DNA of 4,360 bases from a virus. Taxonomy: Duplodnaviria > Heunggongvirae > Uroviricota > Caudoviricetes. A model generated the notes under the pieces. It was given only the letters and a program-made list of their open reading frames with translations. It ran no database searches and was not told where the DNA came from. A program made the translations under genes and the position numbers. Numbering within the stretch: position 1 is the first letter of the stretch; each line of letters opens with the position of its first letter. The stretch is taken from the IMG/VR virus record IMGVR_UViG_2645727868_000005; one strand, 5' to 3'. This document shows positions 1 to 4,360 of the stretch, piece by piece.

Positions 1-1537
1 CGGGAAATACACCGCACAGGATGCAACGACAGCACAGAAAGGGATAATCCAGCTAAGCAGCGCGACCAACAGCACGTCTGAAACGCTGGCGGCAACGCCA
101 AAGGCAGTAAAAGCAGCCAATGACAATGCTGAGAAACGTCTGCAGAAAGATCAGAACGGTGCGGATATCCCTGGCAAAGACACCTTTACGAAAAATATTG
201 GTGCCTGCCGTGCCTTCGGTGGGTCAGTAAGCACAACAACAGGAAACTGGACGACTGCACAGTTTATCGAGTGGCTGGATTCTCAGGGAGCATTTAACCA
301 TCCATACTGGATGTGCAAGGGTTCCTGGTCTTATGGCAATAATAAAATCATTACTGATACTGGCTGCGGTAATATTCATCTCGCCGGAGCTGTCATTGAA
401 GTAATGGGGATAAAGTCAGCGATGACGATCCGCATTACCACTCCGACCACATCCAGCGGTGGCGGAACAACCAACGCCCAGTTTACCTATATTAATCACG
501 GAACAGATTATTCACCTGGCTGGCGAAGGGACTATAACTCCAGAAATAAGCCAACGGCATCAGAGATCGGGGCGTTACCGTCAGGTGGAACAGCAGTATC
601 ATCAGTTAATCTGTCTTCAAAAGGTCGGGTAACCGCGCTGACAGACAATACGCAGGGGGCAACAGGTCTTGAGTTATACGAGGTGTATAACAACGGATAT
701 CCAACAGCGTATGGAAATATCATTCACCTGAAAGGGATGACAGCCGTTGGCGAAGGTGAGTTACTCATCGGCTGGAGTGGTACAAGCGGTGCTCATGCTC
801 CGGCATTTATTCGTTCACGACGGGATACGACCGACGCAAACTGGTCGCCGTGGGCGCAGCTTTACACCTCGGCTCATCCTCCTGCAGAGTTTTATCCAGT
901 CGGTGCACCAATCCCGTGGCCATCAGATACCGTTCCGTCTGGTTATGTCCTGATGCAGGGGCAGACTTTTGACAAATCTGCATACCCGAAACTTGCAGCC
1001 GCTTATCCGTCAGGCGTGATCCCTGATATGCGTGGCTGGACGATTAAGGGCAAACCTGCCAGTGGTCGGGCCGTATTGTCTCAGGAACAGGACGGCATTA
1101 AATCGCACACCCACAGCGCCAGCGCATCCAGTACGGATTTGGGGACGAAAACCACATCGTCGTTTGATTACGGCACTAAATCCACGAATAACATCGGGGC
1201 GCATACGCACAGTGTGAGCGGTACAGCCGCAAGTGCCGGAAACCATACTCATAGTGTCACAGGCGCATCAGCAGTCAGCCAGTGGTCACAAAATGGGTCA
1301 GTACATAAGGTAGTGTCTGCGGCCAGTGTGAATACAAGTGCTGCAGGAGCGCACACTCATAGTGTCAGCGGCACAGCTGCATCTGCAGGTGCTCACGCAC
1401 ATACTGTCGGTATTGGTGCTCATACGCACTCGGTTGCGATTGGCTCACATGGACACACCATCACCGTTAACGCTGCTGGTAACGCGGAAAACACCGTCAA
1501 AAACATCGCATTTAACTATATTGTGAGGCTTGCATGA
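1..1537 (+). CDS. stf: Side tail fiber protein, C-terminal portion (lambda Stf-like); 5' end lies upstream of the window
   Basis: The reading frame beginning at position 2 is open from the window edge to TGA at 1535-1537; the ATG at 311 in the ORF track is internal. The translation carries the conserved tail-fiber box [21 protein letters not shown] (nt 50-112), which I recall from P2 gpH and lambda Stf, a [55 protein letters not shown] segment, seven HxH repeats ([54 protein letters not shown]) and the C-terminus [15 protein letters not shown] that I recognise as lambda-type Stf. Confidence 0.9.
1106..1456 (+). repeat. Protein-level His-x-His repeat array in the tail fiber tip (diverged at DNA level, not a nucleotide tandem repeat)
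   Basis: Seven HxH motifs in G(A/S/N)H(T/A/G)H(S/T) contexts are encoded between 1106 and 1456. The two [15 protein letters not shown] copies use different synonymous codons, so this is an old in-frame duplication. Confidence 0.7.
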
Positions 1538-2436
1538 TTACGCTCATTCTTTCTGCACCAGTAACCGAAATGGCTGAAGCATTTAAGCGGGTATTTGCAA
1601 ATGCAGATAATGTGAATATTGTCGGAAAGCCATTTGAAACAATCAGAGAATTTGACTGCATGGTAAGTGCGGCAAATAGTTTCGGCCTGATGGATGGCGG
1701 TGTTGATGCCGCCATTACCACATTCTTCGGTTCTCAGCTACAGGCCCGCGTTCAGAATCATATTCTTCGTGAATATCTCGGCGAGCAGCCTGTAGGTTCT
1801 GCATTTGTTATTGAAACGGGGCATAATTATCACCCCTGGCTGGTACATGCGCCAACAATGCGTGTTCCGTTGACAATTGACGGAACAGACGCTGTATATA
1901 ACGCAACTTGGGCAGCTCTACTTGCTATCTTTCAGCACAATAAAAACGCAACGACAGACAGGAAAATAAAGACGGTGGTATTCCCTGCAATGGGAGCCGG
2001 ATGTGGTCAGGTGCCGTTTGAAAGCGTTGCCCGGCAGATGAAGCAGGCATGGGATAACTTTAATAAAAAAACAGAATCAATTAACTGGGAATACGCACAA
2101 TCCCGCCAGTCGGCAGTATTTGGCACATATGCATACTGTCCGGGTAATTCTGTTTGCCGTTATGCGGATACTAAATATATTGGATGCGGCGATTATCGGA
2201 CGTATTGCTCACGCTCCGGGCAGGTCTGTATTAACCCTGAACATCAGGCTGATGATGTACTGATACAACATCAGGCTAATAACCGGTTTCGCCCTGGTTC
2301 GCATATACACCGGATTAATCCAGAAAATCCTGTAGGTAATGTCATCTCTGGCGCACATAGCCACGGAAGTAGCATCGTTATTGGTGCTCACACCCATACG
2401 CTCAATAAACAATATTCTGTCTCTGATATTAAGTAG
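1534..2436 (+). CDS. Macro-domain (ADP-ribose binding/processing) protein fused to a Cys-rich, HxH-containing fiber-tip-like C-terminal module
   Basis: 300-aa ORF. Its ATG (1534-1536) overlaps the stf stop (ATGA, 1534-1537), with GAGG at 1525-1528 five nt upstream. Residues around nt 1654-1716 read [21 protein letters not shown], matching the macro-domain N-A-A-N...G-G-G-V...A-I box; nt ~1975-2010 encode [12 protein letters not shown], matching the second macro box (AFPAISTGVYG-like). The C-terminal part has five Cys in [32 protein letters not shown] and two HxH motifs (GAHSHG, GAHTHT). Stop TAG at 2434-2436. Confidence 0.75.
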
Positions 2437-2444
2437 AGGTGAAC

Positions 2445-3029
2445 ATGGATTTCAGAATGAGTGAACAACCACGGACCATAACAATTTATAATCTGCTGGC
2501 CGGAACTAATGAATTTATTGGTGAAGGTGACGCATACATTCCGCCTCATACAGGTCTGCCAGCAAACAGTACCGATATTGCACCGCCAGATATTCCGGCT
2601 GGTTTCGTGGCTGTTTTCAACAGTGATGAGTCATCGTGGCATCTCGTTGAAGATCATCGGGGTAAAACGGTTTATGACGTGGCTTCCGGCGACGCGTTAT
2701 TTATTTCTGAACTCGGCTCATTACCGGAAAATGTCACCTGGTTATCCCCGGAAGGGGAGTTTCAGAAGTGGAACGGCACAGCCTGGGTGAAGGATACGGA
2801 AGCAGAAAAACTGTTCCGGATCCGGGAGGCGGAAGAAACAAAAAACAGCCTGATGCAGGTAGCCAGTGAGCATATAGCGCCGCTTCAGGATGCTGTGGAT
2901 CTGGAGATCGCAACGGAGAAAGAAACCTTGTTGCTGGAAGCCTGGAAAAAGTATCGGGTGTTGCTGAACCGTGTTGATACATCAACTGCACCTGATATTG
3001 AGTGGCCTGCGGTCCCTGTTATGGAGTAA
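2445..3029 (+). CDS. tfa: Tail fiber assembly protein (chaperone), lambda Tfa family
   Basis: ATG at 2445 with SD AGAGGTG (2435-2441) five nt upstream. The product [79 protein letters not shown]...[11 protein letters not shown] is 194 aa and near-identical along its length to lambda Tfa ([18 protein letters not shown]...) as I remember it. The ORF track's GTG at 2439 is two codons upstream and overlaps the SD, so ATG 2445 is preferred. Confidence 0.92.
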
Positions 3030-3043
3030 TCGTTTTGTGATAT

Positions 3044-3090
3044 GCCGCAGCAACTTGTCATGGCAGGATACTGCGGCTGATTTGTGAATT
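3044..3090 (+). terminator. Possible weak intrinsic terminator or stem-loop between the convergent tfa and RT genes
   Basis: Perfect 7-bp inverted repeat GCCGCAG (3044-3050) and CTGCGGC (3071-3077) with a 20-nt loop, followed by the T-rich but interrupted TGATTTGTGAATTT. The long loop and broken U-tract make it weak. Confidence 0.25.
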
Positions 3091-3141
3091 TAAATAGTGT
3101 GTTTATTGCTTTATATATAAAGGATTTAATGGATTACATAT

Positions 3142-4260
3142 CTATGATATCCCTGAAATGTCCTCTTCAAGCTCTTTTACTGATTTCGCAATTTTAAATT
3201 TAAATTTTCTCTCTATTTCACTATTGCTAAGTTTTTTTTCATTCTCTTTCCCTATCCACATAGAAACAATTTCTCGTTTCTGAGATATATGTAGATTGTC
3301 AAAGTTAGGTATGTATTTAAAAGTCTCCGCTCTACCCCTGCGGAGTTCATAGAAAGTTTTAATCAAAGACTTTGGTTTTATTTCTGATGAAAGGCCGAAT
3401 CGGCGGATAAGATTATTGATCGTATGATTAACAGCTCGAAGTTGAGCTGTTGACGTTATTTGTGAGAAGTACGATACCCATCCCAATCGTTTACCTTCAA
3501 ACACACATCCCGTAATTCTAAGATTTAGTTTCCACTGACAATATGCAACAGCTCGTTCTTTATCGTGCTTATTTTTAGCTTGTAGTAGAGCGTGTCTATA
3601 TGCAGTAAAAATTTTTGCTAAGGATGACTCAAATCTAAGAATGCTCTCATGTTTTATCAATAATTCTCGATTTTTTATGTGGTAGCCCAAAAAGTTGAAA
3701 CTTTCATCCAAGCTGCCTACTTTGGATTTTGAGTTCTCTTCATTTAATGGATGTGGGTTTAAATTTAATGATTGAAGCTTATCAATGATATGAGATGCAA
3801 TTTTTGTTGCTTGATCTTTTTGCGTTAAAATAAGAATGTCATCAACGTATCGCATGTACCATATGTCATGCATTTTATTGATTTCATTGTCGAAATCAGA
3901 TAGTGATATTTCAGCTAAAATGTTTGATATTGCTAACCCCTGAGGTACTCCTCTGGTATTATTAGGGACACCTTTGCTTCCTGTACTTCCACTTACAGTA
4001 GGCACGATTAATGATGATGTTATTAACTGCCTAATTTCTTTTTTTCTAATCTTATTTTTTATTGCATTAAATATCAATTTATGTTCAATTGAAGGATAGA
4101 AACTTTTGAGATCTATTTTTGCATATTCAGCATATAGATCGCTGTTTAATGCATTTTTCAATAAGTCAATTACTGTATGTGGTAGTTTTAATCTGGAGTT
4201 AGGATATATTTCTGTAAGGCATACCAGATTCGCCCGGATCTTCCGAAGTTGTTTCCACAC
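3142..4260 (-). CDS. Reverse transcriptase, compact single-domain prokaryotic RT (candidate defence-associated RT; class unresolved)
   Basis: 372-aa minus-strand ORF from GTG (plus 4258-4260) to TAG (plus 3142-3144). RT motifs present: motif 1 IDLKSFYPSI (plus 4087-4113), motif B RGVPQGLAISNILAEISL (GVPQG at plus 3937-3951), motif C YMRYVDDILIL (YVDD at plus 3838-3849), motif 7 FNFLGYHI. An in-frame TGA lies 11 codons upstream of the GTG with no other start in between. The gene is AT-rich (roughly 30-35% GC) against about 50% GC in the fiber genes. Confidence 0.85.
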   Translation of the reverse strand: MWKQLRKIRANLVCLTEIYPNSRLKLPHTVIDLLKNALNSDLYAEYAKIDLKSFYPSIEHKLIFNAIKNKIRKKEIRQLITSSLIVPTVSGSTGSKGVPNNTRGVPQGLAISNILAEISLSDFDNEINKMHDIWYMRYVDDILILTQKDQATKIASHIIDKLQSLNLNPHPLNEENSKSKVGSLDESFNFLGYHIKNRELLIKHESILRFESSLAKIFTAYRHALLQAKNKHDKERAVAYCQWKLNLRITGCVFEGKRLGWVSYFSQITSTAQLRAVNHTINNLIRRFGLSSEIKPKSLIKTFYELRRGRAETFKYIPNFDNLHISQKREIVSMWIGKENEKKLSNSEIERKFKFKIAKSVKELEEDISGIS

Positions 4261-4300
4261 ACCGAAAAGAACGCAGCTTAAATTTCCATTTCACGCTCTT

Positions 4301-4330
4301 TAACAATAAGCAATCAACTTAACAGTCAAT
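4301..4330 (-). promoter_or_regulatory. Candidate sigma70-like promoter for the RT gene (speculative)
   Basis: On the minus strand, TTGACT (-35-like; plus 4324-4329) is followed 15 nt later by TATTGT (-10-like; plus 4303-4308), about 45 nt upstream of the GTG start. Spacing is slightly short and the -10 match is 4 of 6. Confidence 0.2.
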
Positions 4331-4350
4331 TCAAACTAAAGGAGTCAATT

Positions 4351-4360
4351 ATGCAACCAC
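4351..4360 (+). CDS. 5' end of an unidentified plus-strand gene (M-Q-P...), divergent from the RT; continues beyond the window
   Basis: ATG at 4351 preceded by strong SD AAAGGAG (4338-4344) at 6-nt spacing. Only three codons are visible, so no product call is possible. Confidence 0.3.

Follow-up and report, generated by a model that had tools for sequence, protein, structure and literature searches.

A probable 5'-truncated DRT10 reverse transcriptase remnant fused to cro/cII DNA on an Escherichia coli prophage contig

The minus-strand open reading frame (ORF) at positions 3142-4260 of the window is probably, judging from its sequence matches, the 5'-truncated remnant of a DRT10 reverse transcriptase (RT) gene fused to cro/cII DNA. 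The window, the whole stretch of DNA analyzed, is one 4,360-bp Escherichia coli draft contig (LJYB01000073.1 of GCA_001306605.1). The ORF has 372 codons and a reverse transcriptase domain (Pfam). Its product is entered at NCBI as WP_283234776.1, "RNA-directed DNA polymerase", recorded from this single contig only. The GTG with which the ORF opens is not a biological RT start, whether the junction is real or an artefact of assembly. The system from which it derives is DRT10 (UG17), a known one.

DRT10 is composed of a UG17 RT and SLATT and is a tripartite anti-phage system (PMC12632851; 10.64898/2026.04.29.721553; 10.64898/2026.06.29.735271). A 137-143-nt ncRNA is located upstream of SLATT, followed by SLATT and then the RT (PMC12632851; 10.64898/2026.04.29.721553). 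The RT synthesizes protein-primed tandem-repeat cDNA on the A-B-A' template of the ncRNA (PMC12632851; 10.64898/2026.04.29.721553; 10.64898/2026.06.29.735271). For Eco3DRT10, the priming residue is S456 and the cDNA repeat is GAATCATTG (PMC12632851). The ncRNA, SLATT and the RT are all needed for defense (PMC12632851; 10.64898/2026.04.29.721553), and deletion of SLATT or of the ncRNA abolished it (PMC12632851).

Results

Two unrelated prophage parents meet within the ORF

Positions 1-3029 (plus strand) are the prophage surroundings of the RT. They code for a tail fibre, its start cut by the contig edge and its stop at 1537 (Pfam Collar and Phage_fiber), a macro-domain protein at 1534-2436 (Pfam Macro) and a tail-fibre assembly protein, Tfa, at 2439-3029 (Pfam Caudo_TAP). 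The gene order is identical in a lambdoid prophage of E. coli THO-003 (L001).

The macro-domain protein is 300 aa long, and its gene, set between the tail-fibre and tail-fibre assembly genes, overlaps the tail-fibre stop (ATGA). It matches Pfam Macro at 5.9e-19 and, weakly, PADLOC DarG (E=0.005). Cys and His are abundant in its C-terminal third, where GAHSHGSS...GAHTHTL repeats resemble those at the C-terminus of the tail fibre. RefSeq names the product just "macro domain-containing protein" (WP_000631346.1). It could be fibre-associated or an anti-defense enzyme that processes ADP-ribose. The Rfam family IS009 (RF02111) has a full-length match at 2788-2986 (plus strand), wholly within the tail-fibre assembly gene, at 218.5 bits against a gathering score of 117.

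We compared the region by BLAST with 5,426 complete E. coli genomes; phages were also searched. It splits into two unrelated parents. The left parent is the right end of the THO-003 prophage, to which positions 1-4228 are 99.8% identical. One strand of L001 encodes the tail fibre, the macro-domain protein and Tfa; the opposite strand carries the RT, a SLATT_5 gene and a dinI-like gene, beyond which lie the chromosomal yecD and aspS. The RT there is 456 aa and the SLATT_5 protein 183 aa, and the two genes share 23 nt at the start of the RT. The right parent, matching 4213-4360, is a different prophage module, shared by about 1,585 genomes and by several lambdoid phages of known sequence. It consists of the 3' end of a Cro/YdaS-like gene, a spacer and the start of a cII/YdaT-like gene, and phage records label this DNA "Cro" and "cII".

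The crossover can be placed to within a few bases. Positions 4101-4222 correspond to L001 7072-7193 and positions 4216-4360 to 6005-6149 of L002, the lambdoid prophage used for the cro/cII comparison, in both cases at 100% identity and ungapped. Because both alignments include 4216-4222, the AAGGCAT at that site is the overlap of the parents, a 7-bp microhomology present on the RT side and on the cro side. The DRT10 (UG17) RT coding sequence, lacking its 5' part, therefore occupies 3142-4222 (minus strand), as given by identity to L001, the PADLOC RT_UG17 match and protein alignment. The first 13 codons of the ORF (4223-4260, minus strand) are the antisense of the cro-like 3' end according to the ungapped DNA alignments and the translations.

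On the plus strand, 4216-4281 is what remains of the Cro/YdaS-like repressor gene, its last 21 codons and TAA, without the 5' 165 nt. It translates to KAYQIRPDLPKLFPHTEKNAA followed by the stop, exactly as the Cro-like protein of L002 ends; that protein has 76 aa and matches Pfam YdaS_toxin and P22_Cro. The cro-cII spacer of a lambdoid early-right operon follows at 4282-4350 (plus strand; 100% identical to L002 6071-6139) and includes the AAGGAG ribosome-binding site of the next gene. That gene, cII-like with a YdaT domain, begins at 4351 and is cut at the contig end (4351-4360, plus strand; L002 6140 onward). L002 6140 is the start of an annotated "toxin YdaT domain-containing protein" (Pfam YdaT_toxin, E=2.6e-29). 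An IS insertion was considered as the cause of the truncation and ruled out, the DNA past the junction being cro/cII with no IS. Elsewhere in L002 (9177-10809), phosphoribosyltransferase-like and NADAR-family genes separate the replication genes from the nin region.

The GTG lies in antisense cro-like DNA

A preliminary description of this DNA had regarded the ORF as an RT starting at a GTG with no Shine-Dalgarno (SD) sequence. Most of the features it listed are there. The minus-strand ORF opens with GTG at 4260-4258, an in-frame TGA is found 11 codons upstream at 4293-4291, and the frame between the two contains no ATG, GTG or TTG. The preceding 14 nt (gcgttcttttcggt) hold no AGGAGG-like run, in agreement with the reported lack of an SD, and a search of the minus strand upstream of the GTG for a promoter-like site found none. 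The spacing of about 90 bp was also correct, with 90 nt from the GTG to the plus-strand ATG at 4351, which has AAGGAG 7 nt upstream. Long inverted repeats of the a1/a2 type are missing as described; a scan of 4150-4360 returned two weak ones of 9-10 nt. The GC-richer first codons were likewise confirmed (GC 0.43-0.47 over 4200-4289 versus 0.17-0.33 in the RT DNA over 4020-4229). The suspicion that the 5' end had been remodelled was well founded, as the junction at 4216-4222 swaps the first 97 codons of the RT for the antisense cro-like 3' end.

Read on the opposite strand, the GTG is CAC, a His codon of cro. The 13 N-terminal codons of the ORF, MWKQLRKIRANLV, the last of them completed by base 4222, align to nothing in full-length homologues at the protein level. 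True RT sequence begins at ORF residue 14, equivalent to position 98 in the full-length protein. The GTG has neither SD nor promoter because it is simply the first codon resembling a start that follows a random stop in the foreign DNA, and the GC step arises from the junction with that DNA. The upstream space is short because the N-terminus of the RT, SLATT, the ncRNA and the promoter are all missing. The next downstream candidate start, a TTG at ORF residue 34, was read by eye; it has no SD and was rejected as a better start.

Several interpretations drawn from the GTG consequently change. It had been placed upstream of motif 1; the ORF contains neither motif 1 nor motif 2. It is not a genuine SD-less RT start, since it sits in antisense cro-like DNA. 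The upstream space, said to be too short for a retron-style ncRNA, does measure 90 nt, but this fails as an argument because the real upstream region is missing. Of the two options then offered, an RT independent of upstream RNA is not supported: as the GTG is not genuine, the ORF does not argue for an RT that is SD-less or ncRNA-independent. The other, a template RNA located elsewhere, is right for the family, in which the RNA is upstream of SLATT, but not for this contig, from which the RNA is missing altogether. The gene diverging at 4351 is present but unrelated to the RT, being the cII/YdaT-like gene of another prophage module.

Parts of the DRT10 module retained and lost

The ORF keeps residues 98-456 of the 456-aa WP_029701056.1 and the final base of codon 97. 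Over the 359 retained codons, the aligned protein is identical to the intact allele, an identity that would make the truncation recent and that leaves decay no evidence of pseudogene status. Membership of the UG17 clade is evident from the PADLOC RT_UG17 match (E=3.5e-117; next Drt3a, 9.1e-35). The catalytic YVDD (ORF residues 138-141) and the terminal Ser, both invariant in the alignment, are retained. The RT domain is incomplete, with RT_UG17 matched at 97-429 only of its 429 profile positions and Pfam RVT_1 from profile position 49 in the ORF versus 8 in the full-length protein.

Residues 1-97, missing here, are strongly conserved in nine RTs from Pseudomonas/Stutzerimonas that are 57-61% identical overall; examples are SGAIGxDRxRP and YKEKLIxKGAxSxPRQISIPTARDRIxLRAL. 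They align to the N-terminal extension and to RQLGIPTVVDRLIQQAILQEL of the group II intron RT GsI-IIC, the latter stretch being fingers motifs RT1 and RT2 in that enzyme. SLATT is adjacent to the RT in all the Pseudomonas/Stutzerimonas loci inspected, and a SLATT gene is present in L001 (SLATT_5, 2.3e-28), in L004 and in L017. The window has no SLATT sequence, nor the intergenic region upstream of it with the promoter; the DNA beyond 4222 is cro/cII. Deprived of the N-terminal extension, motifs 1-2, SLATT, its ncRNA and its promoter, the remnant is almost certainly non-functional.

Assemblies break repeatedly in the AT-rich 5' third of the RT gene, perhaps at a coverage drop or a fork. Four independent draft or Logan assemblies (L013 1-1111, L014 1-1111, L015 1-1112 and L016 3-1112) all end at the identical base, in RT residue 88, with genuine RT sequence up to the contig end; this shared break is 30 nt upstream of the junction. 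Other partial RT proteins begin at residues 62, 73 and 81. We also inspected the shorter members of the 90% protein cluster, and none has the junction seen here. Those without a start codon read RT sequence from their own first residue, and the one looked up, P0006, starts at the end of its contig; two others start at internal Met codons. A recurrent truncation at the junction point was therefore rejected.

The ncRNA in intact alleles

We located the ncRNA in both the intact E. coli allele and the Pseudomonas relatives, and covariation supports the placement. In L001 the ncRNA is at 8030-8170 (minus strand); it is about 140 nt long, and the true start of the RT is about 0.85 kb downstream of it. 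The segment L001 8025-8175 (minus strand) is predicted to fold into a basal stem bearing four stem-loops (fold z = -4.84). We aligned L001 with the DNA preceding SLATT in each of the nine Pseudomonas/Stutzerimonas loci. The consensus has 34 pairs, 10 with compensatory changes, and 98% of the cells in the alignment are paired versus about 50% when the partners are slid. A covariance model built from the aligned sequences gave 119 bits on L001; on the allele of E. coli IHE3034 (L017), which is independent, it gave 118.6 bits. In L001, a promoter-like TTGACT-17-TAATAA precedes the ncRNA, and the Pseudomonas loci have a conserved TAGAAT.

An RNA structure scan, which the preliminary description had suggested, was run on the window and yielded neither a retron nor a DRT10 ncRNA match. 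With filters off, the covariance model found no ncRNA in the window, its best hit of 5.8 bits (E=5.7) falling inside the macro gene. An Rfam scan at E<=1 returned nothing in 3030-4360, and the IS009 match inside tfa was its only one. The structured RNA of about 140 nt characteristic of DRT10 is thus absent from the window by both the covariance model and Rfam.

The ncRNA of the IHE3034-type allele carries CAAUGAUUC, the reverse complement of the Eco3DRT10 repeat, and the RT of this type is 456 aa and ends in Ser, which fits the priming residue reported at position 456. The template loop reads CAAU-GAUUC-CAAU in L017 (5016-5156, minus strand), corresponding to the published repeat, versus CAAC-GGUUC-CAAU in L001. 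L001 was ruled out as the published Eco3DRT10; as the CAAUGAUUC template is absent from L001 and present in the IHE3034-type allele, the parent of the remnant is a sister allele of the characterized system. The parental module (L001 type) and the IHE3034-type allele are about 94-95% identical in DNA. From its template, the parental allele would produce a predicted 9-nt cDNA repeat, GAACCGTTG.

At least 80% of the ncRNA-SLATT-RT stretch is held by 188 of the 5,426 complete E. coli genomes, with both genes annotated every time. Two different prophages, inserted at separate chromosomal sites, each carry an ncRNA-SLATT-RT-dinI cassette at the right end (L001 6113-8476 and L017 3099-5469). Its neighbors are yecD/aspS with stf-macro-tfa in L001, and prfC with unrelated fibre genes in L017. 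The cassette behaves as a mobile, moron-like cassette.

Discussion

A plausible course of events can be proposed for the truncation. In a lambdoid E. coli prophage, the RT gene is normally found at the tail-fibre end, where it comes last in the ncRNA-SLATT-RT module. Illegitimate recombination, to which the 7-bp microhomology points, probably joined RT codon 97/98 to codon 56 of the cro/YdaS-like gene of a lambdoid early-right operon at AAGGCAT. In lambdoid genomes, cro, cII and the tail-fibre genes are co-oriented, so the join would have the topology of a deletion or an inversion. A deletion could have occurred between tandem or circularized prophage copies; starting in the 5' part of the RT gene, it would reach as far as cro and take out SLATT, the ncRNA, dinI, att, int and all of the early-left and immunity region. 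An inversion would have taken place between two oppositely oriented prophages. Either event would have removed from the locus the N-terminal extension of the RT, fingers motifs 1-2, SLATT, and the ncRNA of about 140 nt with its promoter. The open frame would then read 13 codons into antisense cro up to the GTG, at which an ORF finder reports a start.

We infer that the junction exists outside the assembly, and a real truncation in the cell is the probable reading. It is possible, though unlikely, that the strain has an intact locus and that the last 140 or so nt of the contig (4223-4360) come from a chimeric read or a mis-join. The junction is on a single 4,360-bp draft contig, 138 nt from its end, and has no second occurrence in any collection searched. 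It is carried by none of the 5,426 complete E. coli genomes; BLAST with 4150-4360 and with 4100-4360 against these genomes and phages found no record spanning it, and a 40-mer across 4216-4222 was not found in genome, viral or metagenome contig collections. At least four other draft assemblies break at RT residue 88, in an AT-rich region that is hard to assemble, and library chimeras often arise at short microhomologies. However, an overlap of 7 bp is far under the k-mer or overlap length of an assembler, making a graph mis-join unlikely, and a lone chimeric read would normally be clipped against the well-covered path into SLATT, dinI, yecD and aspS. At both ends the contig also runs about 140-170 nt into prophage DNA that is multi-copy and then stops, the pattern of a real unique segment flanked by repeats: positions 1-171 occur in up to 7 places per E. 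coli genome and positions 4213-4360 in up to 4.

If the truncation in the cell is real, one might ask whether the ORF is a shortened RT that still functions, a 372-aa protein made from the GTG by leaderless or non-SD initiation without SLATT or an adjacent ncRNA. The frame is open for all 372 codons, an NCBI protein entry (WP_283234776.1) exists, and the YVDD and the C-terminal Ser, equivalent to S456 of Eco3DRT10 (PMC12632851), are kept. We consider such an enzyme extremely improbable. Its first 13 codons would be antisense cro, with neither an SD nor a promoter-like site; it would lack the conserved N-terminal extension and fingers motifs 1-2; and none of the homologues inspected starts at this point. 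Published DRT10 defense was also abolished when either SLATT or the ncRNA was deleted (PMC12632851). A truncation that is both real and selected, as a natural escape from DRT10 self-toxicity, is improbable as well. Such an escape could follow because DRT10 makes its cDNA constitutively and UG17 is linked to sbcB essentiality (PMC9226505; 10.64898/2026.04.29.721553). More speculatively, the palm-thumb-CTD fragment might be expressed from a promoter off the contig and modulate an intact DRT10 elsewhere in the cell.

The value of the analysis is mainly as a correction, and for specialists none of the results is surprising. Scanners for defense systems will flag an orphan RT here; the ORF should be taken neither for a functional DRT10 nor for an ncRNA-independent or SD-less reverse transcriptase. 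As a probable remnant, it offers an example of a prophage-borne defense module lost through microhomology-mediated recombination between prophage modules.

Among known systems, DRT10 is the closest, above all the Eco3DRT10-like systems borne by E. coli prophages (Tang et al. 2025, PMC12632851; Sanchez-Nieto et al. 2026, bioRxiv 10.64898/2026.04.29.721553). Residues 98-456 are identical to those of the RT in the intact E. coli ncRNA-SLATT-RT module, including the YVDD and the terminal Ser. Unlike DRT10, only a fragment is present here, with RT residues 1-97, SLATT, the ncRNA and the promoter absent. The remnant cannot work by the DRT10 route, in which tandem-repeat cDNA is synthesized on the ncRNA and SLATT is then activated. 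Retrons belong to the same broad superfamily of bacterial defense RTs, and a retron-type structure (5hhj) is matched at E=1.6e-13. Unlike them, the RT here is of the UG/Abi lineage: its profile is UG17, 4150-4360 has no long inverted repeats and no Rfam retron family is matched. The RNAs also differ, that of DRT10 being a multi-stem-loop template of about 140 nt upstream of SLATT while the retron msr-msd adjoins the RT and has a1/a2 repeats. Since the DRT10 RNA is upstream of SLATT and the RT is not that of a retron, there was never a reason to expect a1/a2 repeats in front of the RT. DRT9 (UG28) and DRT3 (UG3+UG8) are neighboring ncRNA-templated RTs of the UG/Abi lineage, with weaker matches to the ORF (Drt3a, 9.1e-35; Drt9, 1.4e-18). 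The DRT10 ncRNA is reported to be similar to that of DRT9 (PMC12632851). Unlike DRT10, DRT9 and DRT3 have other partner genes and other cDNA products, poly-dA in the case of DRT9 (PMC12483538).
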